The translations under genes and the position numbers were made by a program. Source: Nitrosopumilaceae archaeon (GTDB taxonomy: Archaea > Thermoproteota > Nitrososphaeria > Nitrososphaerales > Nitrosopumilaceae). Taken from it: 64,000 bases of DNA. The notes under the pieces were generated by a model. That model saw only the letters and a program-made list of their open reading frames with translations, was not told the DNA's origin and did no database searches. The number at the start of each line of letters is the position of its first letter. The stretch's first letter is position 1. This document shows positions 12,586-34,238 of the stretch, in pieces. The DNA lies in NCBI GenBank assembly GCA_965214835.1, contig CBDCCK010000002.1, positions 704,001-768,000 of the forward strand, in the 5' to 3' direction.

Positions 12586-13780
12586 TCAGTCCGGATCAGG
12601 GGGCTTTTTGATCCGTACGCTTGTGAGCTGCCTGATGATGCGGGCAAGCAGCACCTTGAGCTTGACTGCTTTTTTCTTGCTCCCAAATCTTGCGATCATC
12701 CAGATGTTCGACATGGCAAGTGCCAGGTAGAACAGCATGAGCCTTATGGAGTCGTTCCGGCTGCAGGTGAGCGGCTTGGATCTCTTGGCGTCGCGGTATC
12801 CGGTCTCTATGCCCCACCTCTTGCGGTACTCCTCGGGAAGCTCCAGCAGGTCCTCGCGGGTGCAGCCGGTCATGTTGGTAAGAAAGGCGATGTGGAACTT
12901 TTTCTTCTTCTTGTCCTCCCTTTCCAGTATTATCATGTTGCATGTTATCTTGTCGCTGCCCGATGATACCGTATACCTGCTGACTGCATCCCTCCTGCCA
13001 TCGACGTACTCCTCTATGGCCCTCTTCACTGCCTCGGTGAGCCTGGCAGGAGTCACGAACTTCATCCGGGCACCCCTGACGGCCTTGAACACGCCGACGG
13101 AGTAAAACTCCCTGTCCATCAGAACCAGCCACGGCCTGATGCCCGCTCCCCTGGTAGTCTGCAGCAGTTTACGCACGAATTCGGGGTTGAATCCGTCCCT
13201 GGTGACCTGAAGGCACGCAAGGTGCACCTGGTGCTCCTCTCCGACGGTCCTTGCCGTAATGTAGGCCTCGGCCGTGTTGGTGCCCGGCCCCCTGTACTTT
13301 ATCTTGTGGGTCATGTCCGGCTTGTGGTCGTACCTGGGAATCTTGGTCTTGTCGATGGCGATTATCGGGTTCCTGCTGATCAGGCCGCCATCTATAGAGT
13401 CCCTGACCGTCCTGCCTAGGATCCGGTCTGCCTTCCTGTGCATCGTCTCGTACCGTATCTGACCCAGCTTGCCAAGCAGCCAGTCGGCGCCGGGGCTGCG
13501 GCCCGTAGAATCCCGGAGCGACTCCGAGATCCTCGTGGCCTAACGTGTAAGGATATACCGCAGAGGGGCTGCGGCCCGTAGAATCCCGGAGCGACTCCGA
13601 GGCCTGCTCGGCGCACATGCGCTCCTTGGACATCGTTGCCAGAAGAGCCGCGGCATCCACCTCGTTGTATATCGCGTTGGGCCTGTCAGAGAACCTCATG
13701 CCTATGGATGAGACGGCTGCTTGGTACATTTTGCGCTCCCTGTGTCCGCACAGCTGAACAACCTTGTCCCGTTTTGGCAT
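12586..13780 (-). pseudogene. ISH3 transposase frameshifted by a 73-bp insertion-duplication
   Basis: IAIDKT, LMDREFY, YRKRWGIETGYR; deleting 73 bp at 13492-13601 restores one ORF. Confidence 0.88.
13492..13601. repeat. 37-bp repeat / 36-bp unique insert / 37-bp repeat
   Basis: ggggctgcggcccgtagaatcccggagcgactccgag at 13492-13528 and 13565-13601. Confidence 0.95.
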
Positions 13781-23621: not shown

Positions 23622-25841
23622 TTACGATCTTTTGTTCTCCAGATCGGCTATCTGCCTCTCCAGCTCTGCGACCCTGTCCAGCTGCTCCTGGGTAGGTGCG
23701 TCATCTCTTGGTTTTGACTTGCCGCTGCCAATCCTGAACATCTTGGTGCCGCAGGCAGAGCATGTCCCCCTCGTGGCAGGTCTGCCGTTTTTCATCGTGG
23801 TCTCCTCAGGATCAGACATGCTGCGCTTTGCCTTGCACCTTACACAGTAGGCTATGACATCGGATGCGGCCTCTGCCCGTTTTTGCTTCTCCTCTAGCTC
23901 CGCGATCTGCCTCTCAAGTGCTGTTGCCCGGTCGATTTGTTCCTGTGTCGGCTCCTGCGAGCTGGCAATTCTTTGCTCTATTGCATCTAGTCTGTCCACC
24001 TGCCTGCGTAGTTTTGCAAGCAGTGTTGATTCGATATCGGCATCCTCAATCTGGCCGATTTGCTCCTCTAGTTTTTCAAGCTGCTCGAGCTGCTCGTCTG
24101 AGGCCTCATCAAACCTCTCAATCATTCCCTCAACCGTTTCAGGCTCGGGTTCCAAGGCAGGCTCCGTCTTTGGGGCACTGGCTAGGGCAGACTCAAGCTC
24201 CCTGATTTTATCAGACAGGATCGAGATCTGCTCGTACTGCTCTGCAATGGATTGGCCTTCGGGTATCGGTTCGGTCTCCGGCCTAGCGGCGGGTTCTGGC
24301 TCTGCCTGCTCTGGCTGAGTTTCCTCAAATGGAACCGCCACCTCACCGTCTGCAGGCAGTGCCCCATGCGGGGATTCCGCAGGCTCGTCCGGCTCGGCCT
24401 CTGCTTGGGCTTTGAGCGATTCTAGCTCTGCAACTTTTTTTTCAAGATCCTCCAGTTTTGCCAGGTCCTCATCAGTTGCCTCGTCTTCAGATCCGGCCTC
24501 GACCTGCTCGCTTTGTTGTATGGCCTCCTCTAGCTGCTTTTCAAGCTCCTCAAATCTCTGGAGCTGTTCAGGGGTTGGATCCTTGTCTTCATCGTCGTCA
24601 TCAAAGTCCATCTCCTGGCCCTCGGGCTGTCCGATTTTACCCCCGGCTACCTCAGGGGGTTCGGGCCGGGGAGTCGTCCCAGCTACAATCCGCTTGAATT
24701 CCTCCTCAGAGATTCCAACTGCCCGGTAGATTGTATGGTCTGGGTAATTTTGATTAAACCATTCCTTGTATCCGGGCTCATTCAAAAAGCGCCTGACATA
24801 ATGCTCAGGCTCCTTTGCAGGATCTACAAAATTCAAGACTCCTTCCTCCGGCTCAGCTGCAGGTTCTGGCTTTGCCTGTTCTGGCTGCAAGTCCTCAAAC
24901 GGAATGCCTATCTCGCCTGCGGCGGGCAGTGAGCCGCGGATAGAGCCTGCGGTTTCTGCGGGTCTTGCCTCAGCTTTGCGTTTTTGTCTTTGCACCTCCT
25001 CACGCTCTAGTCTGACCTGTCTTTGGGCCTCCTCCTGTTTTTCTTGCTCTGCCCTTGCCTGGTCTGCAAGCTCCTCTTCCCGTTTTTTCTGCTCCTCTAG
25101 CCTTCTAAGATAACCTTGCTCATAGTCTAGAAACTCCTGATCGGCTCTTCTCTTTGGCCTTTCTTCAACCCCGGAAGGTTCCTGCTCTTGCTGTGCGACA
25201 GAATCCTCTGCAACTGGATCAGGCTGCAAGTCCTCAAACGGAACGCCTACCTCGCCTGCGGCGGGCAGTGAGCCGCGAGGCGATGCCGGTATTTCTTCTG
25301 CAGGCTCCAGCTGTGTGACAGAATCCTCTGCAACTGGATCAGGCTGCAAGTCCTCAAACGGAACGCCTACCTCGCCTGCGGCGGGCAGTGAGCCGCGAGG
25401 CGATGCCGGTATTTCTTCTGCAGGCTCTGGCTCAGGTCTGGCTCTGGCCTCCGGTTTTGGCTTTTCTGCCGGCTTTGGTGGATCTGGCCTGTCACCGGTA
25501 GGGGCTGTGTAGGTCAGGGGGGGATCTTTTTTTTTACTGTAATCAATCTCTGGAACGTCCCCAAGGTTGTCCAGACTGACCTTGTTTTTGTCGATTCGAA
25601 GATACGGGCTCCCGCCAACCGAAAACATGTGAACTCGCTCCCCCCGCCTCCAGGAGTTCAGCGTCTTGAAGATTGTCATGTATGTCTTCCCCTTTTGCAT
25701 GTTGTGCGATATGGTAAGCTTGTCAACTATCTCGGCAGGGCCCATTTTGCCGTCAAGGTCTTCGTGTACCTCGGCCTCGACGATCTCCCTGTTCGAGTCG
25801 TACGATGCGGCAGCTACTAGATAGTCAGCCCATTTTGCCAT
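23622..25841 (-). CDS. DUF3892-like N-terminus, acidic repeats/coiled coil, DUF5679-like C-terminus
   Basis: KWADYL N-terminus; YCVRCK..MKNGRPATRGTCSACGTKMFRIG. Confidence 0.8.
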   Translation of the reverse strand: MAKWADYLVAAASYDSNREIVEAEVHEDLDGKMGPAEIVDKLTISHNMQKGKTYMTIFKTLNSWRRGERVHMFSVGGSPYLRIDKNKVSLDNLGDVPEIDYSKKKDPPLTYTAPTGDRPDPPKPAEKPKPEARARPEPEPAEEIPASPRGSLPAAGEVGVPFEDLQPDPVAEDSVTQLEPAEEIPASPRGSLPAAGEVGVPFEDLQPDPVAEDSVAQQEQEPSGVEERPKRRADQEFLDYEQGYLRRLEEQKKREEELADQARAEQEKQEEAQRQVRLEREEVQRQKRKAEARPAETAGSIRGSLPAAGEIGIPFEDLQPEQAKPEPAAEPEEGVLNFVDPAKEPEHYVRRFLNEPGYKEWFNQNYPDHTIYRAVGISEEEFKRIVAGTTPRPEPPEVAGGKIGQPEGQEMDFDDDDEDKDPTPEQLQRFEELEKQLEEAIQQSEQVEAGSEDEATDEDLAKLEDLEKKVAELESLKAQAEAEPDEPAESPHGALPADGEVAVPFEETQPEQAEPEPAARPETEPIPEGQSIAEQYEQISILSDKIRELESALASAPKTEPALEPEPETVEGMIERFDEASDEQLEQLEKLEEQIGQIEDADIESTLLAKLRRQVDRLDAIEQRIASSQEPTQEQIDRATALERQIAELEEKQKRAEAASDVIAYCVRCKAKRSMSDPEETTMKNGRPATRGTCSACGTKMFRIGSGKSKPRDDAPTQEQLDRVAELERQIADLENKRS
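25191..25427. repeat. 120-bp coding tandem repeat
   Basis: EPAEEIPASPRGSLPAAGEVGVPFEDLQPDPVAEDSV twice; two more degenerate copies downstream in the gene. Confidence 0.9.
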
Positions 25842-31719: not shown

Positions 31720-32949
31720 TTATGCGGAAAACTCCCCTATCAGCGTGTCAAGGGCATCCTGAAAGAGCGGCTGCTCAGCCTCGCCCGATTCATCTGCATT
31801 GATCCGCCTTATCGTAGTAAGGCCAGAATCAGCGCGATCAAAATAGTACAGTCCCAGATCCGTGCGCCTGATTTTTTTCTTCCATACTAGGGCCAGCAGT
31901 TTTTTCACCACATAGTCGCTGTGTGTGGTAAAGATCAGATTGGCATTCTTTGCGCACGCGGCATTTTGCACCCATTCGATCATTTTTATCTGTTTTGACG
32001 GCTCCAGATGTGCCTCGGGCTCCTCTATGATCAATGTACCGCCGTCGTTGACGTGATTCATTCCGGCAGCAATCGGAAACGTCGCAACAGTTCCAGAACC
32101 TGCAGATTCCAGATCGGTGACAAATCCGACCGGATCCTCGTACGTTATTTGAGCTAATCCACTTGGCGTTTTTACGGTATCAATCGAGCCAGGAAATATA
32201 CCGGAGAACAGTGCTTGCGTGTCCTGAGCCAATCCGTCGGCGTGGGATGAGAGAATGATATCATAAAACTGTTCCAAATATTCTGAAATACCATGCAAAC
32301 GCGTAAAGCTTTGAATGCTTTTAGTCGATGGTTTTGTCGCCTTCATTGGTCTGTCTTCACCAGACATGCCCAACAGGTCACCAAGCAGCCTGTTGCGAAC
32401 GCGCATGATGCTGGTAAAAAACTGCATAGTGCCAGTCCTGCCAGCTGGAATATAGATACTTGTGCGCGTGTTTCTGGCCACGTGACGGAAATACAGAACC
32501 GACAGAAGAGCTAGTTTCTTGTTTGGTAATCGCCGCTTCCTGTGCAGCGTACGGGACAGAGTCTTTGCTCTGAACTTGATCTCAATGTGGCCTTTGTTTT
32601 GGCCGTGCGTTATGGCATCCGGATGCGGTAATCCGGCATTTTGCAGGATGGAATCAATGTAAGCGTTTTCAACATCAGCCGCCTTAGGTTGGACTGTCGG
32701 ATACCCGTATCGTTTCAGCTGAAGTTTTGCCGACCGCAGGGACGGTGTTGGTGTAGAGTTGATGGTGTGGATCAATCTTGACACTATAGATTTTCCAGAA
32801 TTGTTGGGGCCAAAAAAAACATTGATTTTGTTTTGTCGGACAACTCCGTCTTTTATCGGTCCTATGTTCTTGACCGTCAATTCTTGGAGTTTACGTGGTG
32901 GCTTTGAATTGCTCTCACTTGCAGAAAGCATCACATGACCTACGAGCAA
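31720..32949 (-). CDS. ABC/AAA_21-type ATPase (AbiEii/OLD-like)
   Basis: KNIGPI, GPNNSGKS, GSG, IIEEPEAHLEP, TTHSDY. Confidence 0.88.
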   Translation of the reverse strand: MLVGHVMLSASESNSKPPRKLQELTVKNIGPIKDGVVRQNKINVFFGPNNSGKSIVSRLIHTINSTPTPSLRSAKLQLKRYGYPTVQPKAADVENAYIDSILQNAGLPHPDAITHGQNKGHIEIKFRAKTLSRTLHRKRRLPNKKLALLSVLYFRHVARNTRTSIYIPAGRTGTMQFFTSIMRVRNRLLGDLLGMSGEDRPMKATKPSTKSIQSFTRLHGISEYLEQFYDIILSSHADGLAQDTQALFSGIFPGSIDTVKTPSGLAQITYEDPVGFVTDLESAGSGTVATFPIAAGMNHVNDGGTLIIEEPEAHLEPSKQIKMIEWVQNAACAKNANLIFTTHSDYVVKKLLALVWKKKIRRTDLGLYYFDRADSGLTTIRRINADESGEAEQPLFQDALDTLIGEFSA

Positions 32950-33437
32950 GATATCTATAATCTTTATTAGGATGGGTTCTAGACCTTATGCGTAATCGAC
33001 CGGATTGAAACATTCCGACGGCGGGCCGATCATGCATGCCAAGCCGGCAGACGCCGCGGTGTCCAACATATTTGATCAAATCCGCAACTATTTTCAGGCG
33101 ATTGGTTTAGATCCGGGATCCATTCCCGCAGTAGCGGCATGGCAGAATCCGAGGCCCAACTAGCACGACGGCTGAAAAGTGATCTCAGGCAGTGCAGAAA
33201 GGAGATTACACAGTACGAGAAAAGACACGAGAAGGATCAGAAGAAGATAGAGCAGCTGAGCCGGCAGACGGACACCGAACGCAGGATGTGGCCGGCCTCC
33301 GGAAACGATGACAGGCGTACAACGGAGAACGCCGCGTTCTTTCACAGTCGCGAGGTACTCGAGGACATAATCGGCGGTAAGCTGCTGCGTGCCACGACAT
33401 CTATGGACCGCACCCAGTTTGATTACATATCCGACCG

Positions 33438-33596
33438 TAGTGCGCACAGTTAAAATGAGATATTTTCTTATTAAAATAGGCACGATATGCCAAAATTATG
33501 TTGCAGTTTTTGATGCCACGGCAACTATTCGACAGTCAGAATTTCCGAGGAACACGATATGCCAAAATTATGTTGCAGTTTTTGATGCGTGTACTA
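33438..33596. mobile_element. M1 MITE expanded by a 72-bp insertion-duplication
   Basis: Inverted homolog of 8636-8723; 159 minus 72 is 87 bp. Confidence 0.8.
33481..33588. repeat. 36-bp repeat / 36-bp unique insert / 36-bp repeat
   Basis: cacgatatgccaaaattatgttgcagtttttgatgc at 33481-33516 and 33553-33588. Confidence 0.95.
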
Positions 33597-34238
33597 CGGT
33601 TCACAAGGCAGGCCCGGAAGCACACACGACATCAGCATGGTAAAGGACAATCCACCCCCTGACATGGGACTGCTGTCGGCTAGGATGCGCAGCAACAGAA
33701 GGCATACCAGAGGCGAGAAGGTAAAGATGTTAGCGAACCTGGGATGTCTTGGAATCAAGAAAATATATCCGGGCGTAATACTCAGGCAGCCCCACAAAAA
33801 GCCAAAGGGGGGCAAGCTTGGGAGCAGCACGCGCAGAACAGGAGGATAAGCGGCAAGAGGGTGACAGTCGAGCACGCCATAGGGCGCATCAAGCAGTACA
33901 GGCTGGTGTGCATCCCGTATGACGGGACTGCCGGCGAGTTTGACCGGGAGTTGGAGGTGATCACCGGGCTTGTCAACTTTAAGTTGCTGTGGGACAGGCG
34001 GCGCAAGAAGCTCAGGCTTGGATTCTGATACCACGATACGGAGTGCATTGCGGTGCCACGCGGTGCCGCACGACACTGCAGTTTTTGTCAGACATGTGGG
34101 TCCGTAACTGCGCGGTATGCGGCCTTTGCCGCCCTTGCATACGTCGCCTGATGCTGTCGGCCCTGCATGCATGATCGGCTTTCAAACATAATATTTCGAT
34201 CAGGTCGATTACACATAAGGTCTAATGCAAGGAACGCG

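Follow-up and report, generated by a model that had tools for sequence, protein, structure and literature searches.

A repeat-spacer-repeat unit within a MITE-like element of an ammonia-oxidising archaeon, a very probable product of off-target spacer integration by a type I-G Cas4/Cas1 fusion

Overproduced type I-E Cas1-Cas2 of E. coli is reportedly able to integrate spacers off-target, with duplication of the target segment, and non-CRISPR sites are said to be capable of seeding new arrays. Events of this kind have been predicted as a price that CRISPR adaptation exacts, and they have also been proposed as a route to new arrays. Papers citing the E. coli work (Nivala, Shipman and Church, Nat Microbiol 2018) refer, at least in their available passages, to its 'circumstantial evidence' for two other species. 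The accessible part of a study of Pyrococcus furiosus (PMC6698737) describes in vitro use by Cas1-Cas2 of non-CRISPR sites spaced by the repeat length, there 30 bp, with G strongly preferred where integration occurs and with leader-like bases upstream. For the Cas4-Cas1 fusion module of the type I-U (now I-G) system of Geobacter sulfurreducens, the available portion of Almendros et al. (2019, PMC6547450) reports TTN as the upstream PAM and 36 bp as the predominant length of the spacers. Ectopic spacer acquisition is also described for S. thermophilus and S. mutans, in the accessible accounts as occurring inside arrays, at internal native repeats.

The unit considered here, at 33481-33588, lies in a stretch of 64,000 nucleotides (C2:704001-768000 of a 3.22-Mb assembly), hereafter the window, positions within which are given without a prefix. 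The assembly carries amoA and the organism is therefore an ammonia-oxidising archaeon. Judged from sequence comparison, the unit very probably results from off-target (non-CRISPR-site) spacer integration by the host type I-G Cas4/Cas1 fusion together with Cas2. It shares with the E. coli products, in so far as these are described in the accessible accounts, the presence of a spacer at a non-CRISPR genomic site with target duplication. By contrast with those products, the events described here are natural, occur in an ammonia-oxidising archaeon, involve an I-G Cas4/Cas1 fusion and a 36-bp ruler, and number about 42 in one genome, one of the sites being empty in another dataset. As in the available accounts of S. 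thermophilus and S. mutans, an integrase apparently uses a site other than the leader-proximal repeat; here, however, it is unrelated genomic DNA that is targeted, with creation of a new 'repeat'. A search of the literature, largely outside subscription journals, returned no account of ammonia-oxidising archaea together with type I-G, nor of off-target integration occurring naturally across a genome. The process itself is familiar from experiments in E. coli, but to our knowledge natural events in such numbers, including one at a site filled only in the later dataset, are unreported. Evidence from natural genomes has so far been called circumstantial, in the sources as accessible; here the natural events come with empty-site controls.

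At the studied locus the 36-mer CACGATATGCCAAAATTATGTTGCAGTTTTTGATGC is present twice, with 0 mismatches and a start-to-start distance of 72 nt, the two copies being separated by a 36-nt insert (Table 1), as an initial annotation of the window had described and with the insert sequence that it quoted. An exact 36-mer recurring 72 nt apart in 64 kb cannot be chance. The unit lies in a MITE-like element, which measures 159 bp as it stands and 87 bp once the 72 bp are removed, as in the rest of the family, so the claim that such a removal restores the family length is upheld. When the element with the 72 bp deleted in silico was used as a query, BLAST against the genome gave 47 rows, from which 23 other copies, each matched over at least 70 nt, were aligned together. 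The insert is present in none of these 23 copies and the 36-nt target segment occurs once in every one of them; the possibility that the insert is an intrinsic sequence of the MITE family, against which the initial annotation had proposed exactly this comparison, is thereby ruled out. The second target copy is interpreted as the product of gap repair after staggered integration. An Rfam search of 33000-34000 matched no family. Just upstream of the element lies a 409-aa ORF (31720-32949, - strand) with AAA_15/AAA_21 (AbiEii-like) ATPase domains, which may be a defence gene.

Table 1. Features of the studied unit and of the sister unit (window positions)
Feature	Position	Strand	Remarks
Target copy 1	33481-33516	.	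Exact repeat; single-copy in all other MITE copies
Insert, spacer-like, 36 nt	33517-33552	.	Missing from 23/23 other MITE copies and from the run X5 contig
Target copy 2	33553-33588	.	Identical to copy 1
TAGG immediately 5' of copy 1	33477-33480	+	Partial match to the C[A/G]GG of ectopic cut sites and native leader ends
MITE-like element, integration target	33438-33596	.	Imperfect terminal inverted repeats; aligned with 23 other copies
Sister target copy 1, 37 nt, inside IS transposase gene	13492-13528	.	
Sister insert, spacer-like, 36 nt	13529-13564	.	
Sister target copy 2	13565-13601	.	
IS transposase gene, DDE_Tnp_1	12586-13780	-	Frameshifted by the 73-bp sister insertion

The locus was also compared with contigs of four public runs, two of which (X7 and X8) have no cover over the insert. 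Contigs of run X1 (study P1, 2024) cover 33250-33510, 33487-33582 (a contig spanning 96 nt) and 33559-33850 with 0 differences; they match across both insert junctions, both of which are therefore real. A 747-nt contig of run X5 (study P2, 2019) matches 33250-33480 and then 33553-33850, again with 0 differences, joining 33480 directly to 33553 and skipping exactly 72 bp (33481-33552 or equivalent). It follows that an empty allele exists, either in a near-identical strain or in an earlier population. The X1 and X5 data are contigs from different studies, which bear on allele frequencies and on the direction of change over time by inference only, and the difference between them could be one between strains, not necessarily one of time. 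A DNA search for an empty orthologous site in 30 relatives gave partial matches in one genome only.

A sister unit is present at 13492-13601, within an IS transposase gene. The initial annotation regarded the two as having the same geometry, and they are indeed alike in consisting of repeat, spacer and repeat with a 36-nt insert; the sister unit, however, is 37/36/37 with a period of 73, and not 36/36/36. The transposase gene is now split into two ORFs, 13169-13780 and 12586-13443, the longest ORF being of 285 aa with the insert and of 373 aa without it. An IS copy at C2:2636759-2637186, which is 99.6% identical, has the sister target once and so represents an empty site. No counterpart of the sister insert exists elsewhere in the assembly, nor was an exact one found among viral contigs. 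Both window inserts carry TCCTCG near an end, which had been noted with the caution that it may be chance. Chance is the probable explanation, the hexamer being found near the insert end in 2/42 ectopic inserts (the two window units) and in 1/147 native spacers, with no support elsewhere.

The genome-wide scan that had been suggested at the outset was made for isolated direct-repeat pairs at least 29/30 identical, the repeat being at least 15 nt shorter than the period and two native arrays being excluded. Non-native pairs at periods 71, 72, 73, 74, 75 and 76 number 3, 23, 10, 4, 9 and 3, respectively (total 52), versus 105 pairs together, with a mean of 1.1 per period, at the remaining 95 periods in the range 40-140. 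The 53 candidates at periods 70-77 were reduced by 11 rows to 42 units (about forty) outside arrays. The rows dropped comprise two in a palindromic-motif array at ~C2:35.5 kb, two that are microsatellite-like, three collagen-like coding repeats, two 75-nt coding tandems, one 72-nt tandem the 'spacer' of which is repeated too, and one row that is the second copy of the event at C2:1921439. Separately, a 42/37/42 unit with a period of 79 bp, present in four IS copies (C2:1308256, 1624026, 2343414 and 2692095), was not accepted as an event, since in diverged relatives of that IS the 'spacer' belongs to the element itself, which makes the unit an intrinsic internal repeat.

The repeat is different in each of the ~42 units. 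Exact repeats are of 36 nt in 14 units, 37 nt in 11, 38 nt in 3, 39 nt in 2, 35 nt in 3 and 34 nt in 2, with 7 being degenerate; the tail above 36 is as expected from a fixed 36-bp duplication plus extension by chance matches. Periods of the ectopic units range from 71 to 76, with modes at 72 and 73, and those of the native repeat plus spacer from 71 to 77, with modes at 73 and 72; the ectopic inserts are 33-40 nt long, their lengths following those of the native spacers. None of the 42 units of this genome (G000) has a second spacer, i.e. there is no ectopic site that has grown. When the 42 ectopic inserts and the 147 native spacers were compared all against all, a single weak match, of 20 nt, was seen between ectopic inserts.

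Paralogous empty sites are available for 20/42 units, including the sister unit. By the same criterion a paralog is found at 502/1500 random sites (33%; p=0.04). The remark in the initial annotation that both window units lie in mobile DNA thus corresponds, genome-wide, to only a weak trend towards multi-copy DNA. The targets cluster at 2.2-2.47 Mb, and 11 of them lie within 150 kb of cas1 versus 3.9 expected (p=0.001, the interval having been set after seeing the data). The GC skew reaches its minimum in the same region, at 2.36 Mb, and proximity to cas1 and to the skew minimum are inseparable as explanations.

Some of the units have direct effects on genes. In addition to the frameshifted IS transposase, several ORFs, e.g. 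those for a glycosyltransferase, a sulfotransferase and an IS3 integrase, are extended in frame by 24-25 codons and stay open, while some other units break reading frames. The proportion of periods divisible by 3 (24/42 for ectopic units versus 62/147 for native ones, p=0.11) is not significantly raised, and so gives no indication of in-frame selection. A further 36/36/36 unit, at C2:558201-558308, introduces a stop into an ORF that encodes ribosomal protein S4 domains and at the 3' end of which the unit lies, the open frame across the site being of 228 aa with the insert and of 635 aa without it; its repeat is G-rich and internally repetitive, for which reason this event is less certain.

The genome encodes a candidate integrase. 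There is a single match to cas1, a full-length Cas4g/Cas1g fusion at C2:2480012-2481712, scoring 754.8 bits over the full model (cut-off 560), and Cas2 scores 32.1 bits (cut-off 24.5). The order at the locus is cas4/1 fusion, cas2, a 171-nt leader, the array, and then cas3g, cas8g2, cas7g and csb2; Cas3g, Cas7g and Csb2 are above their cut-offs and Cas8g2 is below (100.8 bits versus 125). The native array (C2:2482178-2492954) has 148 identical 36-nt repeats and 147 spacers, with lengths of 26 nt (1), 35 (7), 36 (45), 37 (54), 38 (18), 39 (16), 40 (4), 41 (1) and 51 (1). The 36-nt duplication in the studied unit is thus of the same length as all 148 native repeats, and its 36-nt insert is within the main range of native spacers, 35-41 nt. 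A tRNA-like sequence, read by eye, lies at C2:2479740-2479815, between a ribosomal-protein operon ending in L6 and cas4/1, and the whole I-G locus may be on an island integrated next to a tRNA.

Comparison of the targets with the native leader and repeat, also proposed in the initial annotation, was informative for the class of units but less so for the studied site. The analysis covered the 35 units with exact repeats of 34-39 nt, one half-site per strand, i.e. 70 half-sites. Position -4 is occupied by C in 34 of these, position -2 by G in 34 and by T in 1, and position +1 by G in 35 (each p<=6e-5), giving a cut-site consensus of C[A/G]GG↓G for the ectopic class; GG directly precedes either cut in 15/35 units, versus 13.4% expected, and in 18 motif-oriented events there are no conserved columns outside -4 to +1. 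The native leader ends in CGGG in the present genome, in CAGG in two relatives (G055 and G004) and in GAGG at the main array of a third (G066). Given this likeness in four genomes, the motif copies the last leader bases. The studied unit's own cut site, TAGG↓C, matches C[A/G]GG at 3/4 positions. With respect to P. furiosus, the G preference and the leader-like bases upstream recur here, at a spacing of 36 bp; by contrast with the plasmid substrates used in vitro there, according to the accessible part of that report, the products here are fixed in the chromosome. A further difference is that resemblance to the native repeat is weak, the in-register identity being 12.2/36 on average for the ectopic class versus 10.4 for random 36-mers (p about 0.004) and 11/36 for the studied duplicated segment. 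The events provide an in vivo target rule for a type I-G integrase, i.e. a C[A/G]GG anchor combined with a 36-bp ruler.

The predicted folding of the studied and native repeats is likewise dissimilar. The native repeat forms a 7-bp hairpin (-11.7 kcal/mol, z -3.0), whereas the studied repeat is without a stable hairpin (-2.5 kcal/mol, z +1.0). Processing of a crRNA from the studied unit is therefore unlikely, and, because the native hairpin is missing, the unit is most likely an inert scar rather than a working mini-array.

A search for the source of the studied insert, as had been recommended, was without success: the insert is not matched elsewhere in the assembly, viral and metagenome contigs yielded nothing identical to it, and 300 family genomes gave no match at <=3 mismatches. 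For the class as a whole, sources were found for some of the inserts. Matches elsewhere in the assembly were found for 14/42 ectopic inserts and, with one of these being a paralogous copy of a whole unit, there are 13 chromosomal protospacers, versus none for the 147 native spacers (p=6e-10). At 8 of these 13 protospacers TTN, mostly TTC, lies directly 5' in one orientation, versus 12.1% expected from random 36-mers (p=3e-5); it is missing at the other 5. In few events can the orientations given by the PAM and by the cut-site motif both be read; the two are consistent in 3 events and in conflict in 1 or 2. In its Cas4/Cas1 fusion with Cas2, its TTN PAM and the length of its inserts the present system resembles that of G. 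sulfurreducens; the difference is that canonical integration at the leader-proximal repeat was scored there, according to the available portion of that work, while the inserts here are outside any array.

Four of the protospacers are within 6.3 kb (C2:900193-906409), beside the sole orc1/cdc6 gene. This gene adjoins a gene for the PolD small subunit, and the cumulative GC skew has its global maximum at 900,498; the region C2:900127-906409 is probably the replication origin. The simplest reading of the excess of chromosomal sources is that self DNA is captured often and is tolerated only where it is unable to guide interference, such that the ectopic inserts offer a view of uptake before selection. 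Only one native spacer, number 41 (C2:2485136-2485172), matches sequence beyond the array, at a site on the 13-kb contig C1. The match to C1:6365-6401 is of 36/37, with the mismatch at spacer position 1 and with GTT, not TTN, upstream; these features could let the C1 replicon escape interference by spacer 41.

Several other explanations of the unit can be considered. Replication slippage or unequal recombination, duplicating part of the MITE with no integrase, can yield direct repeats 72 bp apart, and there are true tandem duplications in the window, of 2 x 120 bp (99%) at 25190-25427 and of 2 x 51 bp (98%) at 372-475, which are exact or near-exact and unlike the repeat-spacer-repeat units. 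Slippage, however, copies pre-existing sequence, and the insert is missing from the other MITE copies, from the X5 allele and from the rest of the assembly; neither the sharp peak at periods 72-75 with 36-nt repeats nor the TTN beside the insert sources is explained. We therefore consider it extremely improbable, in line with the preference for an integrase over slippage expressed in the initial annotation. Repeats in multi-copy MITEs are also prone to misassembly, but the independent X1 contigs span both insert junctions and about 42 analogous units are present at unrelated loci, leaving an assembly artefact with almost no probability.

The layout of the unit and its CRISPR-like sizes are those that would be expected of a functional mini-array carried by a mobile element, as in some viruses and plasmids. 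Such an array is nevertheless very unlikely, given that the repeat is a piece of the MITE and not the host repeat, to which it is hardly closer than a random 36-mer, that it is without the native hairpin, that the other MITE copies are without the unit, that each unit in the genome has a different repeat, and that each, including the one studied, has a single spacer. Target-site duplication around inserted DNA is a general mark of transposition-like integration, and another element or enzyme might be proposed, e.g. a transposon with a 36-bp target-site duplication, a casposase or filler DNA at staggered breaks. The inserts, however, have no common sequence and their lengths track those of native spacers; the sole Cas1-family gene belongs to the I-G module, and both the TTN PAM and the leader-like cut motif point to a CRISPR adaptation complex, making such alternatives highly improbable too. 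The geometry, the empty sites, the cas genes and, at the level of the class, the PAM and cut motif are directly observed, and together they support the Cas1-like, ruler-based integrase that the initial annotation had put forward from two units. The best explanation for the about 42 scars in this genome, the sister unit included, is that the same process left them all.

With off-target integration by the I-G complex as the preferred reading, a sequence of steps can be proposed. A complex loaded with a prespacer of ~36 nt would make its first attack beside the short leader-like GG motif (TAGG↓C) in the MITE. The second attack would then be on the opposite strand, 36 bp away, that being the distance measured across the native 36-nt repeat, and gap filling would leave a copy of the 36-bp target to either side of the spacer. 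We infer both this order of chemical steps and the capture of the studied insert from foreign DNA.

The I-G fusion is not confined to this genome. Of 61 family genomes searched, 7, the present one among them, have a Cas4g/Cas1g that scores above the cut-off, and three I-G relatives were sampled over about 380-400 kb around the locus each. Such units are carried by two of the three, G066 and G055. In G066 (GC 70.6%), which has 530 native repeats in adjacent I-G arrays of 69, 70 and 391 repeats at C1:2941283-2981980, there is an excess of non-native pairs, with 13 at periods 70-72 and 2 at period 74 after removal of units with internal sub-repeats, in a genome the high G+C of which makes spurious repeats more likely. 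At C1:2989807-2989986 of G066, 5.7 kb from cas4/1, three copies of a non-native repeat enclose two different spacers, i.e. a neo-array. G055 has 6 isolated units with unique repeats, and in G004, of the same genus and with a native array of 37 repeats, there is no ectopic unit in the 400 kb around the I-G locus. The cut-site motif is weak in these comparators, being present in 2/6 events of G055 and in about 1/7 of those of G066.

Taking these results together, we lean, if only slightly, towards a broader proposal, in which the I-G Cas4/Cas1-Cas2 of these archaea habitually integrates spacers genome-wide, guided by little beyond a 4-nt leader-terminal (C)AGG anchor and a 36-bp ruler, and is active now, mutating ordinary genes, occasionally seeding arrays and leaving an unselected record of uptake. 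If this is correct, present activity would be manifested in the studied site, empty in the 2019 dataset and filled in the 2024 one, and gene damage in the frameshifts and in-frame insertions described above, while the two-spacer site in G066 would be an example of the occasional seeding of new arrays. Ectopic units would, moreover, be invisible to interference and so constitute an unselected record of raw spacer uptake. In this record self DNA would make up about one-third and have its hot spot next to the replication origin, such spacers having been purged from the native array. From a practical viewpoint, array finders can mistake such units for mini-CRISPRs, and the units are usable as strain markers.

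The adjacent native spacers 105 and 106 are 97% identical over 37 nt, which suggests local array duplication or repeated uptake. A second, degenerate I-G array (C2:135821-136367) consists of 8 repeats that differ from the native repeat at 2-5 positions, and it adjoins a cas3g fragment, a DNA methyltransferase and VirB4/VirD4-like conjugation genes, suggesting that the region is an integrated conjugative element. Outside the window, C2:34440-36100 has a dense 24-nt palindromic motif, AAAATGTGGCAA(T)ATTGCCACATT, at an irregular spacing of 64-126 bp, after which comes an 84-bp tandem array.
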